Virus record (IMG/VR): IMGVR_UViG_3300023208_000397
Span: 1 to 57,908 of that record
Strand: one strand, 5' to 3'
Source of the DNA: a virus
Taxonomy: Duplodnaviria > Caudoviricetes
DNA length: 57,908 nucleotides
In this document: positions 12,678-50,199 of the stretch, piece after piece
Numbering within the stretch: position 1 is the first letter of the stretch
Layout: each line of letters begins with the position of its first letter
The notes under the pieces: model-generated
Database searches by the model: none
Seen by the model: the letters and a program-made list of their open reading frames with translations, nothing else
Told to the model about the DNA's origin: nothing
Position numbers and translations under genes: made by a program

Positions 12678-12788
12678 CTCAAGTCGCTCCCATGCGATGG
12701 GCGCGCCTGTCGTCAGCTACCGGCGCGCCCGTGGTCCACCCGGTTGCGGGCTGCTGCCTTTTCCGGTTTCGGGTAGTCTCGCGCGGCT

Positions 12789-13526
12789 ATGCCCCTCGCC
12801 ACAACTGTAAGAACCCCGCAACGAACAACACCTGACCTGGCGCTGGCTTGCGAAGCGATAGCCAGATTCCCGGCAGCGACAAGCCTTCCTGACCTCAGCG
12901 AGTGCGCTACGCTGATGAGCGAAGCTCTAGGGTTGCCGCTGCACATCATGCTGCACTTCAGCGGCGCGGCTGCGCGCCTGCGCAATGCTGTCCACAACGG
13001 GGCCGTAGGCCTGCCGCTCAGCGAGCTGGTGTGCGATCCGCGCGTGGTGGATGCTCTGGGGTCACCGATACCGAGGTTCGTGCCGGATGGCTTAGACCCC
13101 TTCGTGAGCGGGCCCTGCATCGTCGTCGCAGGGCGCTACTCGAACACGAGTTGTGTGGTGATCTTGGGAGGTCGGGCCGATCTGACCCAGGATGAAGCGG
13201 TGGCACTTGCGGGTGCGGCCGTGATGGCGGCCAACGGCGCGGCCACAGCGATGCGCAGCATGGTCGCCGCGGATTGCCCGCTAACCGTGCGTGAGCTGGA
13301 GTGCCTCTCGTTCGTCGCGGCCGGGGCCGGCTACAGAGAGGTCGGGCAGGAGCTGGGTATCAGCCCCCGCACCGTGGAAAAGCATGTCGAGCGGTGCCGA
13401 CAGCGGCTCGGCGTGGACACCAGCCTTGCAGCTGCATTGGCTGCAGTGCGAGCCGGCTGGATCAGCGACGCCGAGCTGGAGGACATTGAGCTTAGAAGCC
13501 GCCGCCGCCAGTACGGGGCAGGCTGA
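12789..13526 (+). CDS. LuxR-family regulator with an intact C-terminal HTH
   Basis: PLTVRELECL..VAAG..YREVGQELGISPRTVEKHV..CRQRLGV. Confidence 0.88.
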   Translation: MPLATTVRTPQRTTPDLALACEAIARFPAATSLPDLSECATLMSEALGLPLHIMLHFSGAAARLRNAVHNGAVGLPLSELVCDPRVVDALGSPIPRFVPDGLDPFVSGPCIVVAGRYSNTSCVVILGGRADLTQDEAVALAGAAVMAANGAATAMRSMVAADCPLTVRELECLSFVAAGAGYREVGQELGISPRTVEKHVERCRQRLGVDTSLAAALAAVRAGWISDAELEDIELRSRRRQYGAG

Positions 13527-13557
13527 ACAGTTCGGCGAGTGCGGCGAAGATCGACAT
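13492..13557 (-). CDS. Putative 21-aa peptide MSIFAALAELFSLPRTGGGGF (absent from the ORF track)
   Basis: AGGAG RBS a few nt upstream of ATG 13557, TAA at 13494-13492, and a candidate promoter upstream. Confidence 0.55.
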   Translation of the reverse strand: MSIFAALAELFSLPRTGGGGF

Positions 13558-13601
13558 GAAAGGCTCCTGAAAAGGTTGTCTGGTCAACACGACCAGGAGC
13601 C

Positions 13602-13648
13602 ACTATCGCCGCTTGCTCAGGGTTGCGAAACTGTCAACCCTGTCAGAT
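13602..13648 (-). promoter_or_regulatory. Lux-box-like site abutting a weak sigma70 promoter
   Basis: CTGTCAACCCTGTCAG (CT-N12-AG, 13631-13646) next to -35 TTTCGC (13630-13625), a 17-nt spacer and -10 GATAGT (13607-13602). Confidence 0.5.
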
Positions 13649-13662
13649 TTACGTACATCGCC

Positions 13663-14379
13663 TCATGGGTGTATTAACCCACCGTCGACGGCCTTCAGCA
13701 CCAGGTCGGCGCTGGTGCGGGCGCCCATCTTGCGGGCCGCGCTGGCCAGCGCGGGGCTGGCGCCCAATTCGCTGATGCTCATGAGCCGCCCCTTGCGGCG
13801 CAGGACCGTGGCGCCAGCGGTCTGGACCGCGGCCCGCTCGGATCTGTTCAGCTGGTCCGTGGGGTTTGCGCCTGCGCGCATGGCCAGGATGCGCAGCGCG
13901 CCCGCCTGGGCGTGCATGGCAAGCATCTGCAGGTTGGCCTGCAGCAAAAACAGGTCCGGGCCGGAGGGGAGGGCGTCGGGGCGGTCCACACCGAGCATGA
14001 ATGCCTCGGCGTGGGTGGGGGCGTGTATCGAGACGGCCATGCCGGCGCGGAAGCCGAACGCCGCCTGGGCGTCCCACAAGTCCGAGGCACCCGCTCGCGC
14101 ATAGGTGCCTTGGTCATACTGGGCGTGCCCGGGCCGCGCCATCAACTGGGTGAGCAGCGGGTCTCGCAGGCCGTCGCCAGCGCTGTACATGGCGTCCTCA
14201 TAGCCGGCCGGTGGATTGCCGAAGGCATGCAGGCCGGAGGGGCGCTCTAGAGGGCCACGCAGCAGCACAGCAGAGGCCAGGCCAAAGCCCATGTCCTGTG
14301 CGAGCGCTACCGTCCGCGCGGTCAGCGCGTCGACGGTGTCGGCGGCGCTCAGCTCAAGCAGGGCCTGGTATCGAAGCAT
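13663..14379 (-). CDS. LuxR-solo-like protein: autoinducer-binding domain with a degenerate HTH
   Basis: GNPPAGY...RDPL, YDQGTY..AG...W..QA.FG.R.G and GVDRP..LP motifs; C-terminus has ARKMGA...GLI but lacks EIA..L.IS..TV..H. Confidence 0.8.
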   Translation of the reverse strand: MLRYQALLELSAADTVDALTARTVALAQDMGFGLASAVLLRGPLERPSGLHAFGNPPAGYEDAMYSAGDGLRDPLLTQLMARPGHAQYDQGTYARAGASDLWDAQAAFGFRAGMAVSIHAPTHAEAFMLGVDRPDALPSGPDLFLLQANLQMLAMHAQAGALRILAMRAGANPTDQLNRSERAAVQTAGATVLRRKGRLMSISELGASPALASAARKMGARTSADLVLKAVDGGLIHP

Positions 14380-14412
14380 CGCTGGATTCTGCGCGGCCGG
14401 AGGGTTTGGTGT

Positions 14413-14934
14413 CTATCGCCCCAGCGGGGCGGTACGCCGTCTCGGCTGCTTCGGTACGGCTGATGCCACTGAGGCGCGCTCTGCGAGCGCGTCATTGACC
14501 CTTGAGAGAAAGCCGGCAATCACCGCCCGCTCCTTGACCGGCTCCTGCTCGGCCATGGCAAAGACAGCGTTGTGCCAATCGCGCAGGCGCTGCAGTTCCT
14601 CGCGCTCTGGGTCTATCAAGGGGGAAGGCGCAGCACCGATGCTGGGGGCCATCTCGGTGATCGCCTGGGCGATCTTGTCAATGATGGCGTTCCGATTGGC
14701 CTCGACTGCGGCACCCTCACCGAACAGCAGATCGCTCTCTGTGCATCCCAGTGCCTTCGCTACATAGCCCAGGCGTGTTCTTTTCGGCGCTGAGCCACCG
14801 TTCTCCCATTGCTGGACGGTTTGCCAGGCCAGGGGTTTCTTCGCCCCCTCCAGCTCGCTGACCTTCGCGGCCAGGGTTGCATGTGACCAGCCCTTCGCCT
14901 CTCGGCGCCGCTTGATCTGCTCGTGAATCGACAT
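14413..14934 (-). CDS. cI: CI-like XRE repressor without an S24 peptidase domain
   Basis: IKRRREAKGWS..TLA...QTVQQWENG..PK...VAKALG HTH; divergent from cro. Confidence 0.85.
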   Translation of the reverse strand: MSIHEQIKRRREAKGWSHATLAAKVSELEGAKKPLAWQTVQQWENGGSAPKRTRLGYVAKALGCTESDLLFGEGAAVEANRNAIIDKIAQAITEMAPSIGAAPSPLIDPEREELQRLRDWHNAVFAMAEQEPVKERAVIAGFLSRVNDALAERASVASAVPKQPRRRTAPLGR

Positions 14935-14937
14935 GGG

Positions 14938-15005
14938 CACAAGTTTTTCATGTACCCGTGCATCCTCAAATGCAAGAACATCTAGCGATACTAGAAAATC
15001 TGGTA
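14938..15005. promoter_or_regulatory. OR: three 17-bp operators and divergent promoters
   Basis: CACAAGTTTTTCATGTA (14938), TGCAAGAACATCTAGCG (14971) and TACTAGAAAATCTGGTA (14989); TGGTATAGC extended -10-like element before cro. Confidence 0.8.
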
Positions 15006-15017
15006 TAGCATTGGGCG

Positions 15018-15278
15018 ATGGACCGCAGCACCCACTACCCATCCGAGGCGCACCGCGCGATTGCCATCCTGGGCGGGCCTGTTCAGGCAGCAAGGCTGCT
15101 GGATGTGCCGAACCACCGCTATCAGACGGTGCAGTCATGGCTCAAGACGCGGGTCCCCGCTGAGTACTGCCCGGTGATCGAGAAGCTGACTCGCGAGCTC
15201 GGCGATGAAGTGCGGTGCGAGTCCATCCGCTCCGACGTCGAGTGGGGGGTTCTGCGCAGCACGGCGAGGGCCTCCTGA
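15018..15278 (+). CDS. cro: Cro/YdaS-like regulator
   Basis: AIAILGG...AARLL...QTVQSW...VPAEYCPVIE...V.CE.IR.DV.W. Confidence 0.88.
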   Translation: MDRSTHYPSEAHRAIAILGGPVQAARLLDVPNHRYQTVQSWLKTRVPAEYCPVIEKLTRELGDEVRCESIRSDVEWGVLRSTARAS

Positions 15279-24754: not shown

Positions 24755-25119
24755 AATCGAAGCTGATCGCTTTCGTTGCCGCGGCCACCGGTTGGGCTTT
24801 GGTCGCCGGGTTCCTTGTCGGCCTCATCGGTCGTGTGCCGGAACGGCCTGCGCAGCCGCTATCGGCCGACGTGGCTATCGCGGTGGTCATCGTTATGACA
24901 GGGCTGATGGTTCTCGCCTACTTCGCGGGCCAAGCTGCCGCCGAGGAGGACTTTGGCGACGACGGCGCCTTGCTGGATGAAGCGCTGGATGCCCTACACG
25001 AACTCGAGGACGAGGCCGCTATCCATTTGCGACTGCGCGACGAGCGCGGAGCCCATGTCGTCAAGGAAGCCCAGCGGGTGCTGCTTACCTCTGGCCGAGG
25101 CGTGAAGGGCTGGAACTGA
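24751..25119 (+). CDS. Membrane hypothetical protein
   Basis: Two hydrophobic segments; AGGAG RBS. Confidence 0.6.
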   Translation: MKSKLIAFVAAATGWALVAGFLVGLIGRVPERPAQPLSADVAIAVVIVMTGLMVLAYFAGQAAAEEDFGDDGALLDEALDALHELEDEAAIHLRLRDERGAHVVKEAQRVLLTSGRGVKGWN

Positions 25120-31317: not shown

Positions 31318-31722
31318 CTACTTTCCCTTTCCAGCACCCGCCGGCCAGTCGCCGCCCAACTCAGGCCCCATGCCATCGCTCAGGACCTCGTGCGCCTCCT
31401 CGGGAGAGAAGGGGCGCATCAGCCAGCTCTGCAGGTAGGCCGGCTCGTACAGCGGCTCATCCTTTGGGCGCTCGAACCCGGTCACCGTCCAGACGGACGC
31501 CTTGGCATAGATAAGCGTCGCATCCACCAGCGGCGGCAGCAGATCCGGCGCCCAGGCCTGGTGCCCGAGCGGGCGCAGCCGCGCCACCCGCACTCTGCGG
31601 CAGGTTTCCCGGTCCGATTCCTCTTCCAGGACGAACTCTCCCGGCACGCCGGGCAAGCGCACGACGTGGTGCCGCGGGATGACGCGGCCCTTCTCACGGA
31701 GGCGGTGAACGTGGAAAAGCAT
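31318..31722 (-). CDS. SOS-regulated hypothetical protein
   Basis: ATG lies 1 nt from a LexA box; LLPPL.DA.L...TGFER...Y.QSW. Confidence 0.7.
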   Translation of the reverse strand: MLFHVHRLREKGRVIPRHHVVRLPGVPGEFVLEEESDRETCRRVRVARLRPLGHQAWAPDLLPPLVDATLIYAKASVWTVTGFERPKDEPLYEPAYLQSWLMRPFSPEEAHEVLSDGMGPELGGDWPAGAGKGK

Positions 31723-31723
31723 A

Positions 31724-31739
31724 CTGTATAAATATACAG
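31724..31739. promoter_or_regulatory. LexA (SOS) box
   Basis: CTGTATAAATATACAG, a near-consensus CTGT-N8-ACAG in otherwise GC-rich DNA. Confidence 0.9.
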
Positions 31740-31776
31740 CTTTCGGCCGTGCCGCAAGTTTTGGCCGGCTCATTCC

Positions 31777-31796
31777 CGTGCCAAGGCTGGCAGATT
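31777..31796 (+). promoter_or_regulatory. Late-promoter motif copy 4
   Basis: CGTGCCAAGGCTGGCAGATT, upstream of the portal operon. Confidence 0.75.
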
Positions 31797-31820
31797 CCCC
31801 GCAACTTCTGGGGCTGCCAC

Positions 31821-32270
31821 ATGGGTGTTTCTCTCGACCTGCGCAAAGCGCATCTCTCCCGTGTCCACGGCGACATCACGGCCGTGCTGACCTGGGTCAA
31901 TGACTCCCGCGCCATGGTCCTGATCCCGACGCTGCGCCGGGATGCGGGCTGGTACATCGTTGACGACTCGGCGGCCTACCGTTGGAACATCAACGCCATC
32001 GACTCGGTGGAGCGCGCCCAGGCCATGGCCCACGCCGATCAGCAGTCGCGCATCGCGTGCACGATGCTGGGCATTGAGCCCAGCCTGCGCAATCGGGCCC
32101 GCCTGGTCAACATCGTCACCGACATGCTGCCCGAGCTGGTGAGCATGCCCAGCGCGCCGATGCCCGAGTACCTGAAGGGGGCTGTCGGCCAGATGATCCT
32201 GAAGGCCGATGGCCAGGCCGTCGCCGGCGAGGACATCCGGATCGAGCGAGAGGGCGCGCAGTATGCGTGA
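31821..32270 (+). CDS. Conserved hypothetical protein upstream of the portal
   Basis: Strong codon bias; overlaps the portal start. Confidence 0.75.
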   Translation: MGVSLDLRKAHLSRVHGDITAVLTWVNDSRAMVLIPTLRRDAGWYIVDDSAAYRWNINAIDSVERAQAMAHADQQSRIACTMLGIEPSLRNRARLVNIVTDMLPELVSMPSAPMPEYLKGAVGQMILKADGQAVAGEDIRIEREGAQYA

Positions 32271-37232: not shown

Positions 37233-38222
37233 ATGAGCCTCACACACTCCGAGCTTGAAGAACTGCTGCGCCTGGCCCTCACCGCCCTGCGCGGCCAGGC
37301 CCTGGCGGCCGGCGTGCCCCCAGCGGCGCCGGCCAGCCTACCAGCGCAAACCAGCGCGGGCCCCACGCTCGCCGAATGGCTGGTGACCTACCGCAAGGTC
37401 ATCGCCGAGCGCGGCTACAACGAGCAGACCCTGAAGAACCGCGCGGCCAGCCTCAAGCACATTGAGGGCGCCTGGGGCGCGCTGGCCCTGCGGGCTAATT
37501 GTCCCGTGGACATCGCCAGCCGCATCAAGCGCTGGACGCCGCACACCGCCGGCCGGATCCTGGGCGAGCTGCGCGATGTGTTCGTGGAGGCCATCGCCCA
37601 CGGCGAGGCCGAGACCAGCCCGGCCGCGCACGTCAAGGCGCCTCGCGCGCCGGGCCTGCGCAAGCGCCTGACGCTGGATACCTGGCAGAGCATGCTCACC
37701 CTGGCCCAGGCCGGCCCGCAGGCCTGGGTGCCCGCCATGCTGCTGCTGGCCCTGCACACCGGCCAGCGCCGGGCCGACCTGGCCAAGATGCGCTTCGATG
37801 ATGTGGTGGACGGCTGCCTGCGCGTCGAGCAGCAGAAGAAGGCCCGCAAGCCCATCGGCGCCCGGGTGGCCATCCCGCTGCATCTTCGGCTGCAGGCCAC
37901 CGGCCTGAGTCTGGGTGAGGTCATCGAGCTGTGCCGCGGCATCGGCGCCCCGGGCGACTACCTGCTGCGCAAGCGCGGTGGTGGCCGCATCGAGGAGAGC
38001 TCGCTCTCGGCGCGCTTCCGGGAGCACATCGTGGCCGTGGCCGGGCAGGGCGCTTACCAGCGCTTTGAGTGGCCCAGCCTACACGAGGTGCGCAGCCTCA
38101 GCGCCCGCACCTACATCGCCAGGCTTCCATGCTGTGCTCGTGTTGAAGCGGTATCGGAGGTAAGCCAAGGTGAGCGCGACCATGACCCAGGTCTTCCACG
38201 GAGGTATCCCAAGATCCTGTAG
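37233..38222 (+). pseudogene. Lambda-Int-like tyrosine recombinase without an arm-binding domain, C-terminally disrupted near 38120
   Basis: LALHTGQRRADL, QQKK and PSLHEVRSLSARTY present; the expected LLGH...Y box is absent in all + frames. Confidence 0.8.
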
Positions 38223-49770: not shown

Positions 49771-50199
49771 ATGAAACCCGAGCTGGACTTCGACCAAGAG
49801 GCGGTTTTCGCGTGGATGCGCAGCCGCCTGCCCGGGTACGGCCGCAGCGATGGCGCCCGGGCCATTGGCCTGCGCCGCGGCGGCGTGCTGGTGGCCGGCG
49901 TGGCCTTCGATGGCTTCAACGGCCGCAACCTCTGGATGCACGTCGCGGCCGACCCGGGCGGCCGGTGGCTGACCCGTGGCTACCTGGACGCGTGCTTCCG
50001 GTATGCGTTCGTGGTCTGCGGTGTCGACCGCGTCAGCGGCTATGTGGACGCCAGCAACGAGGCCGCCCGTCGATTCGATGAGCACCTCGGGTTCAAAGAG
50101 GAAGCCCGTCTCAAGGGCGCCGCACAGGATGGCGGTGACGTGATCTTGTATGTGATGCGCCGAGAGGACTGCCGCTATGGCCAAATTCCACCGCACTGA
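49771..50199 (+). CDS. GNAT-fold acetyltransferase-like protein of the ejection module
   Basis: V..SN..A.RF.EHLGF.EE..L motif. Confidence 0.85.
   Translation: MKPELDFDQEAVFAWMRSRLPGYGRSDGARAIGLRRGGVLVAGVAFDGFNGRNLWMHVAADPGGRWLTRGYLDACFRYAFVVCGVDRVSGYVDASNEAARRFDEHLGFKEEARLKGAAQDGGDVILYVMRREDCRYGQIPPH

Follow-up and report, generated by a model that had tools for sequence, protein, structure and literature searches.

What does an open reading frame (ORF) of 21 codons do between two convergent luxR genes, beside the cI repressor gene of a prophage? The question is posed by IMG/VR record IMGVR_UViG_3300023208_000397, a provirus record of 57.9 kb (57,908 nucleotides (nt), 68% G+C; hereafter the window), for which an initial annotation made from the sequence had proposed that a minus-strand peptide behind a lux-box promoter acts as an antirepressor, a LuxR modulator, or a phage-to-phage signal. 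Comparison with relatives favors the last of these options, a signal or exported peptide, and turned up nothing specific for an antirepressor of the Qtip style. We find that the ORF belongs to an undescribed family of peptide genes, which hold beside a LuxR-type receptor, apparently not one for acyl-homoserine lactones (AHLs), the place that luxI holds in LuxI/LuxR pairs. The interpretation of the product as a LuxR-activated peptide is well supported by comparative evidence. The fuller reading, in which LuxR activates the gene for the precursor of a small exported peptide and this peptide is the partner signal of a LuxR module carried by the phage beside cI, seems to us about evenly poised between right and wrong.

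The small gene and its relatives

The peptide gene occupies 13492..13557 on the minus strand (ATG at 13557-13555, stop codon at 13494-13492) and by direct reading encodes MSIFAALAELFSLPRTGGGGF in 21 codons plus stop, with a Shine-Dalgarno sequence, AGGAG, 6 nt 5' of the ATG at 13564..13568 on the same strand; both were present where the initial annotation had placed them. The gene lies downstream of cI and of one luxR gene (luxR2, 13663..14379, minus strand) on their strand and is convergent with the other (luxR1, 12789..13526, plus strand), overlapping the last 35 nt of luxR1 in antisense. That its transcript would run antisense to the 3' end of the plus-strand luxR, as had been noted, follows from this layout, and the overlap is kept in relatives.

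Taken alone, a short ORF in DNA of 68% G+C carries little weight, and its significance comes by comparison. Close database relatives of the LuxR2 protein number only 15. A blastn search of 12700-14500 against a phage collection gave no match, the single LuxR2 protein as query found nothing in viral or genome contigs, and an alignment query found nothing in viral contigs; the alignment of LuxR2 relatives retrieved 28 bacterial-genome and 25 metagenome loci (L002-L054), which with the window make 54. The genome loci are mostly from Sphaerotilaceae (Roseateles/Pelomonas, Piscinibacter, Rubrivivax, Rhizobacter, and Aquabacterium). A strict scan sought a same-strand ATG ORF of 12-90 amino acids, at most 450 nt downstream of the LuxR homologue and bearing a C-terminal motif that was defined after viewing the data; 38 of the 54 loci had such an ORF, whereas of the 2210 small ORFs in the rest of these loci only 33 bore the motif. 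Ten variant loci bring the family peptide ORF beside a LuxR homologue to 48 of 54: it is encoded on the opposite strand in L005 and L016; L007 and L019 have it extended or within a longer ORF; in L034 and L035 it is truncated or has another ending; and in L036, L037, L048, and L049 it stands at a greater distance. Near-duplicate loci (L036/L037, L040/L041, L046/L047, and L052/L053) put the number of independent loci below 48. No peptide was seen in the remaining six: L031, L038 (with a flank of just 75 nt), L039 (followed by a transposase), L043, L044, and L054 (a partial LuxR match).

A tree of the LuxR proteins, midpoint-rooted for drawing only, separates a mobile-element clade from a chromosomal clade with support of 100 in the Shimodaira-Hasegawa-like approximate likelihood ratio test (SH-aLRT). 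The former comprises the window, P0002-P0015, L032, L033, L035, and L036, whose proteins have a sensor domain and no GerE domain, whereas members of the chromosomal clade have both. There are eight peptide-gene copies of the mobile-element type (the window, L030, L032, L033, L034, truncated where its contig ends, L035, L036, and L037, a duplicate of L036), and the ORF, its Shine-Dalgarno sequence, a -10 element, and a structured leader recur in all eight. The check proposed with the initial annotation, conservation of ORF, ribosome-binding site, and box in relatives, thereby gave the first two in eight of eight copies and the box in six. Each of the six mobile-element loci with sufficiently long flanks (the window, L030, L032, L033, L036, and L037) has the order LuxR2, peptide, convergent LuxR1, and contigs of size 4689, 12674, and 4257 carry LuxR1 and LuxR2 homologues together in the protein database, as judged by matching size. 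Cro-like and cII-like genes surround L032, and ParB and primase/helicase genes L036, both being phage or mobile contexts.

The chromosomal layout in Sphaerotilaceae differs: a divergent rsaM-like gene stands upstream of luxR, and the peptide gene follows luxR on the same strand. DUF4902/RsaM was the best Pfam match of the divergent gene, of about 150 codons, in 15 of 17 tested, at E values from 1.7e-6 to 0.09 and with only L003 above the curated cut-off; it was found in none of the three divergent upstream ORFs of phage-type modules (L032, L033, and L036), nor in three ORFs near the module in the window. There, cI occupies the rsaM place upstream of luxR, and the locus is not an rsaM-luxR solo pair of the arrangement called 'type 6'. 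No LuxI gene was seen in the annotated neighborhoods of the loci.

The peptides of the mobile-element type read MSIFAALAELFSLPRTGGGGF in the window, MSFDDIFAFILGLPRTGG in L030, MSIFELIAELLGVPRTGGW in L032, MIFDAFIAFLLGTPRTGGG in L033, MSLYELFSFLAPWIPGG in L035, and MFATVFAAIFGLPRTGG in L036; a further homologue, MYEFFAALAELISFPRDGGW, stands in L005 beside a LuxR that is 36% identical to the window LuxR. All family peptides share a C-terminal core of the type P-x-x-G-G-(W/F), and those of the window and L032 are more alike than their LuxR proteins, which are 48% identical. GGAG precedes the ATG by 5-7 nt in six of the seven distinct mobile-element-type copies, and L033 has AGGGA. Across five copies, the differences per codon position are 0.40, 0.20, and 0.66, and synonymous changes make up 0.42 of the changed codons when read in frame but 0.17 and 0.03 in the shifted frames, a pattern that argues for a translated gene. 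Conservation and this coding signature together back the gene status claimed for the ORF and indicate that it is a real, translated small gene. A 32-residue version starting at GTG 13590 is disfavored, since the Shine-Dalgarno spacing and the ATG kept in relatives favor the 21-residue form.

An NCBIfam search with the family peptides gave noise-level matches only. Near-identical DNA occurs in two lake-water metagenomes, from which the record may stem, and relatives at 95-99% occur in assembled contigs of further runs. A contig from an RNA library (run X22) matches 13098-13554 at 96%, but its strand and start are undefined and it may derive from DNA, so we do not use it as evidence of expression.

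Promoter and leader

By direct reading, a LuxR-type box, CTGACAGGGTTGACAG (CTG-N10-CAG), occupies 13631..13646 on the minus strand; a poor -35 element, TTTCGC (13625..13630), abuts it, and a -10 element, GATAGT (13602..13607), follows after a 17-nt spacer, all at the positions of the initial annotation. The pattern of the box resembles those of lux and cep boxes. In LuxR class II promoters the box lies about 42 nt 5' of the start and abuts a weak -35; here its center lies 43.5 nt from a predicted start at 13595, placed 7 nt past the -10. The -10 reads GATAGT in six and TATAGT in one of the seven distinct copies, and the stretch between box and -10 is constant in length and variable in sequence across copies. 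The TTTCGC sequence itself is not conserved in the alignment, and a -35 stretch without sequence conservation fits an activator-dependent promoter; a consensus scan of the window called no sigma-70 promoter at the GATAGT site. Just 5' of the box, at 13648..13656 on the same strand, the alignment of mobile-element copies shows a further conserved block, GT-x-CGTAAA.

The box recurs well beyond the prophage. It is kept in L030, L032, L033, and L036 and has at most three mismatches in six of the eight mobile-element-type copies, being degenerate in L034 and L035. It matches the box that precedes the host-type peptides, CTGTAAGAGTTGACAG, which recurs there in exact or near-exact form, at 13 of 16 positions. 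Allowing at most three mismatches to the phage or host form on both strands of 390,777 bases (53 loci and the window), we counted 44 boxes, of which 28 are followed 70-110 nt further on by a family ORF, 12 lie between an rsaM-like gene and luxR in the opposite orientation, and four lie elsewhere. In 28 loci the ATG follows the start of the box at 71-96 nt, 24 of them falling within 85-93 nt, and the end of the box is 23 nt from the -10 both in the window and in host-type L017 and L016, where the -10 reads TGAAAT. Of the class II lux-box promoter that had been claimed, the conserved box and its 23-nt spacing to the -10 stand, and the start site is a prediction. Comparison supports the view that the box is authentic and conserved, of LuxR type, and sits, relative to that predicted start, where class II promoters have theirs.

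Within the window, this box is the sole match with three or fewer mismatches; no further such box occurs in the prophage, matches with four mismatches are unconvincing, and CTG-N10-CAG as such is not enriched (21 found against 33 expected). One of the weak matches, ATGACAGGGCTGATGG at 24895-24910 on the plus strand, has four mismatches to the phage box, lies inside an ORF about 380 nt before the small terminase gene, and is probably due to chance. The boxes between the divergent rsaM-like gene and luxR of host-type modules form a second LuxR-type box (CTGACAAGGTTTACAG or CTGACAAGTTTGACAG), on the minus strand of each locus (L011:3907, L018:3935, L022:3935, L028:3911, L042:241, L045:2035, L048:2364, L049:5203, L050:3826, L051:1848, L052:3054, and L053:3826). 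This second box, at two mismatches, is nearer to the phage-type box than is the host box ahead of the peptide.

Downstream of the -10, folds give a structured leader at 13562..13601 (minus strand), in which GGCTCCTGG (13601-13593) forms an outer stem with TCAGGAGCC (13570-13562), burying the Shine-Dalgarno sequence. Inside it lies a conserved hairpin, TGGTC-N5-GACCA (13595-13581, minus strand), of seven pairs, three of which show compensatory changes. In the minimum-energy folds of all seven distinct mobile-element copies the bases just past the -10 pair with the Shine-Dalgarno region, with Z-scores from -1.0 to -5.0. RNA reading through from cI-luxR2 would fold with the Shine-Dalgarno sequence buried, whereas RNA from the box promoter, if it starts as predicted, would lack the 5' arm of the outer stem and hence be translatable, such that only the LuxR-driven transcript would be translated well. 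Fold-back inhibition of translation in read-through transcripts is familiar from the IS10 and IS50 transposases; the likeness is that sequence 5' of the gene's own start can pair with the ribosome site, which would silence only transcripts that come in from outside, here from predicted folds and a predicted start and with no sequence relationship.

Several other structures in this stretch were considered. A hairpin of CAGGGTTG with CAACCCTG (13643-13619), seen in the first fold, was dropped because it is not conserved in relatives, and the leader hairpin was rejected as an intrinsic terminator of cI-luxR2, having no T tract and not being called in the consensus scan. That scan did return a terminator-like hairpin with a T-rich tail at 13385..13402 (minus strand), about 90 nt past the peptide stop and within the luxR1 antisense region, which is a possible 3' end of the peptide transcript. 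Rfam gave no match over the whole window at the gathering threshold. A relative in run X3 (a contig matching 13376-13656 with three other letters) has a 1-nt deletion exactly at 13595, the predicted start; at a depth of 2.8 this may be an assembly error.

Receptors, export, and the role of the peptide

Both flanking genes are LuxR-type by Pfam and by fold, as annotated, and their products are both of the quorum-sensing type, each defective in one half. LuxR2 has a quorum-sensing-type ligand-binding domain (Pfam Autoind_bind, PF03472, at 9.4e-12) and a degenerate C-terminal helix-turn-helix (HTH); Pfam matches no GerE domain in LuxR2 or its mobile-element-clade homologues, whereas host-type relatives and LuxR1 do have one. 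Its AlphaFold2 model (predicted local distance difference test score 88) shows an alpha/beta/alpha sensor fold, with a low-confidence loop and no helix at residues 195-208, where an HTH helix is expected, and its Foldseek matches are SdiA, RhlR, TraR, QscR, and CepR2. In LuxR1 a very divergent ligand-binding-like domain, unrecognized by Pfam, precedes a canonical GerE HTH, and the model matches QscR, RhlR, and SdiA over its full length; a 25-residue tail, the end of which is encoded antisense to the peptide, is conserved (..SRR-x-QYGAG) where the peptide ORF overlaps. Elsewhere, on a 1.2-Mb metagenome contig (L031:3097-4714), two tandem LuxR2-like genes of sensor domain only stand beside a KdpD/KdpE-type two-component system; this locus yielded neither a peptide ORF nor a box nor a LuxR1 partner.

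The AHL-contact residues of LuxR proteins we take to be W57, Y61, D70, P71, W85, and G113 in TraR numbering. When LuxR2 is aligned with RhlR, SdiA, and its own family, W57 is replaced by Y, F, or H, position 61 is variable (M in the window), and position 85 is Y or W; the D-P pair and the Gly are kept across the LuxR family, and the Trp of N-Y-P-x-x-W and the Tyr that follows are replaced. These replacements indicate a pocket unlike that of AHL receptors and suggest that the protein does not take an AHL as its ligand.

What it might bind instead is suggested by the chromosomal relatives. One LuxR clade (SH-aLRT 99, seven rows) goes with precursors of 50-70 residues that have a leader of the form E-L-D-x3-L-x2-V-x-G-G and an invariant P-x3-W end. 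Genes for HlyD and an ATP-binding cassette (ABC) exporter with a C39 peptidase follow the long-type peptides in L017, L018, L024, and L029, and HlyD alone follows in L011, where the locus ends. The part predicted to remain after the double glycine is 8-9 residues in L013, L015, L017, L024, L026, and L027. In L011:4812-4991 and L045:2917-3126 the terminal hexapeptide occurs twice (LPKSTW twice and APKAGW twice, respectively), once right after the double glycine and once at the C terminus, which suggests that the hexapeptide is the unit released in these two. ABC-2 exporter genes and a TAP-like hydrolase lie upstream of or flank many host loci. At least 147 clusters in the database contain the long form; most are unnamed or called 'hypothetical protein', and none has a functional name or a Pfam domain. 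The conserved C-terminal core, the exporters, and the non-AHL pocket together speak for a small exported product that would act through its P-x-x-G-G-(W/F) end.

Four other accounts of the peptide have to be set against this one. A LuxR-induced small antirepressor that inactivates the adjacent cI-like repressor, and so brings about induction without the SOS response as in the modules of Aeromonas phages that comprise XRE, LuxR, and a small ORF (smORF), would explain why the module stands directly beside cI and cro, and the box promoter suits such a design of transcription factor and smORF; an XRE-type gene followed by luxR on one strand also recalls the xre-luxR operons of phages Apop and ARM81ld, as the accessible text of their description gives them (PMC10432266). 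We nonetheless think this unlikely, because homologous peptides with the same box lie beside chromosomal rsaM-luxR pairs that have no phage repressor, one homologue clade is evidently exported (double-glycine leader, HlyD, and C39 ABC exporter), 21 residues is far below the 51 of the cited smORF, and the module of L032 differs in place and orientation relative to the cro and cII genes. Less probable again is an intracellular modulator that binds LuxR2 or LuxR1 as an anti- or co-activator and could stand in for an RsaM-like regulator: host-type modules have the rsaM-like gene (DUF4902 best in 15 of 17) and phage-type modules have none, and the short peptides lack an obvious secretion signal, but RsaM and peptide are both present in host-type loci, which excludes a simple replacement of RsaM, and both the exported long forms and the duplicated terminal hexapeptides speak for action outside the cell.

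Action outside the cell would also fit a LuxR-controlled, exported antimicrobial or modified peptide, akin to a microcin or to a peptide that is ribosomally synthesized and modified post-translationally, with the phage copy serving lysogens as a moron-borne weapon. A double-glycine leader with a C39 ABC exporter and HlyD, the combination present in the relatives, is how class II bacteriocins and microcins are classically exported; bacteriocins are commonly under quorum control; and the nearby ABC-2 transporters could confer immunity. Against this, the predicted mature parts are very short at 8-9 residues, no conserved modifying enzyme other than the TAP-like hydrolase lies in the neighborhood, the short type is leaderless, and no immunity gene is evident in the window; we therefore hold this account to be rather unlikely, though not quite as much so as the intracellular modulator. 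Very improbable, finally, is a non-coding role, in which the box promoter yields an antisense RNA against the luxR1 3' end, or hairpins end convergent transcripts, and the ORF is incidental. The region does lie between convergent genes, its transcript must overlap luxR1, and its leader is strongly structured, but the ATG, the Shine-Dalgarno spacing, and the peptide are conserved, change is mainly third-position and synonymous, the host-type peptides have no antisense partner, and the hairpins lack a T tract and are not called as terminators.

The reading as a partner signal is favored over these because homologues lie beside chromosomal rsaM-luxR pairs without a phage repressor, because double-glycine leaders occur with HlyD and C39 exporters, and because the terminal hexapeptides are duplicated. 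Several points weigh against it all the same. The window peptide has no double-glycine leader, its Gly run being C-terminal, and no recognizable export signal, and no exporter or peptidase gene, including C39 ABC and HlyD, was found in the 58-kb prophage. Of the six complete peptides of the mobile-element type, four lack the terminal aromatic residue that is invariant in the long type and have GG or GGG as their last residues. The prophage has a single such box, so that no output to lysis or lysogeny genes is visible, and activation of the promoter is read from conservation. A search for LuxI (PF00765) in five host-type genomes returned none of five, and its controls were silent too, which makes it uninformative on the absence of LuxI. 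We know of no precedent for peptide ligands of LuxR-type pockets. The last third of the mobile-element ORF overlaps the conserved LuxR1 tail, and constraint on the other strand could explain part of its conservation; we take the peptide to be a constrained partner because the same P-R-x-G-G core is present in chromosomal peptides without any overlap.

For the partner-signal reading we infer a start site, activation by LuxR, export and processing, a ligand role, and a link to the choice between lysis and lysogeny. The box promoter, with its box about 43 nt 5' of the predicted start, poor -35, and good -10, would be LuxR-dependent and of class II type. Host machinery would export the 21-residue precursor and trim it to a short C-terminal oligopeptide of the type L-P-R-T-G-G, which the ligand-binding domain of LuxR2 would sense. 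LuxR1, with its intact HTH, may then act as activator on the box promoter, by itself or jointly with LuxR2, or a host LuxR may do so in its stead; the outcome would be autoinduction, to which the same transcript, running antisense into luxR1, could add negative feedback. The phage would then carry beside cI a diverged receptor-plus-signal copy of the host module and use it for signaling between lysogens or for tapping into or mimicking host signaling. A complex prediction of the LuxR2 ligand-binding domain (residues 1-175) with the 32-residue GTG-extended ORF scored 0.03, giving no support, and we do not use it for or against binding.

How does this arrangement compare with known systems? In the LuxI/LuxR loop a lux box (or cep or tra box) stands ahead of the synthase gene, and the present locus shares a CTG-N10-CAG abutting a weak -35, ahead of a gene next to luxR, in a positive-feedback architecture; the gene behind the box, however, is a ribosomal peptide of 16-70 codons and not an acyl-homoserine lactone synthase. 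In the Rgg/SHP and ComR/ComS systems of streptococci, in RRNPP systems generally, and in arbitrium (AimR/AimP), a tiny peptide gene, frequently left unannotated, lies beside and is driven by its own regulator, with an active C-terminal end and ABC-type export, and arbitrium is phage-borne near lysogeny control genes. The family described here looks functionally nearer to Rgg/SHP, ComRS, or arbitrium, by analogy, on a LuxR scaffold: their receptors are of tetratricopeptide repeat type and come from Gram-positive bacteria and their phages, whereas the candidate receptor here is of LuxR-type alpha/beta/alpha fold and from Betaproteobacteria. Phage VP882 offers a looser likeness, a phage sensor-regulator that controls an adjacent small gene (here predicted), without homology; its VqmA is a PAS-type receptor of 3,5-dimethylpyrazin-2-ol (DPO) and its Qtip a 79-residue antirepressor.

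A review of RsaM describes the 'type 6' arrangement of rsaM with a luxR solo in Pelomonas and a few other genera. Our chromosomal relatives (Roseateles/Pelomonas, Piscinibacter, Rubrivivax, and others) have the same divergent pair without luxI; the available text of the review nowhere mentions a peptide, its account lacks the small gene and box downstream of luxR, and the phage copy differs in having no rsaM-like gene. Among phages, the closest precedent comes from Aeromonas phages ARM81ld and Apop, in whose XRE-LuxR-smORF module, according to the accessible text of the report, LuxR with C4-homoserine lactone and XRE activates a 156-nt smORF whose product inactivates cI (Silpe et al., Nature 2023, PMC10432266). 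Both systems have a quorum-sensing-type LuxR beside an XRE-type gene on one strand and a small unannotated ORF behind a LuxR-dependent promoter (here predicted), in the part of a temperate phage genome devoted to immunity or control. As far as that text goes (PMC10432266), the ligand there is the host's C4-homoserine lactone and the smORF is counter-oriented, whereas here the hallmark Trp and Tyr of AHL binding are missing from the pocket, the ORF is 21 codons long and placed downstream in the same orientation, another LuxR gene is convergent, and chromosomal homologues of the peptide come with export machinery.

In its boldest form, which we advance tentatively and consider somewhat less probable than its negation, the partner-signal reading would make this the first ribosomally made peptide autoinducer for LuxR-type receptors, with a whole family of Sphaerotilaceae 'LuxR solos' paired with a peptide gene that replaces luxI, and a split version (sensor LuxR2, DNA-binding LuxR1, and peptide) captured beside cI by temperate phages and mobile elements of the same bacteria. 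A literature search, from whose coverage subscription journals and supplements largely fell out, found no description of a peptide partner for LuxR or RsaM. LuxR 'solos' are widespread and most are without a known ligand, and the pairing, if true, would supply a directly testable ligand candidate for a whole subgroup, and would join two branches of signaling that have been kept apart, the AHL/LuxR type of Gram-negatives and the peptide type of Gram-positives. To our knowledge, peptide communication among phages (arbitrium) has so far been confined to Bacillus phages and those of related bacteria; the presence of receptor and peptide as a cassette next to cI in a prophage of Betaproteobacteria would, if true, extend the arbitrium principle and give Gram-negative phages an arbitrium-like, density-dependent input into lysogeny. 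Even the least novel reading leaves an unannotated conserved gene family and a defined operator and promoter ready for reporter assays.

Neighboring genes and other features of the prophage

The window carries recombination genes, a cI/cro pair, a helicase, methyltransferases, and terminase, portal, head, tail, and lysis genes. Around the peptide the order is an SNase-like nuclease gene (+), luxR1 (+), the small ORF (-), luxR2 (-), a cI-like HTH_3 gene (-), and a cro-like YdaS gene (+). The cI-like gene, identified by Pfam as an XRE/HTH_3 repressor (14413..15138, minus strand), is separated from luxR2 by a gap of 33 nt, and the cro-like gene of the YdaS family, also by Pfam (15018..15278, plus strand), diverges from it. 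In its longest form the cI ORF shares 120 nt with the divergent cro-like ORF, and because of this overlap the true cI start is probably internal, near 14934 (MSIHEQ...), leaving a divergent promoter region of 83 nt.

Three further features lie away from this region. A perfect, AT-rich 16-bp palindrome, CTGTATAAATATACAG, occupies 31724-31739 in otherwise 68% G+C DNA, where the ORFs 31318-31773 (-) and 31749-32270 (+) overlap, and could be an operator or an origin-like site. An integrase-family gene (37233-38222) is found not at a prophage end but amid the structural genes, with the portal gene on one side and the major head genes on the other; permutation of the record, or a second element within it, may account for this. 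Among the tail and virion genes, finally, lies an acyl-CoA N-acyltransferase gene (GNAT-like, phrog_4470, moron category) at 49771-50199.

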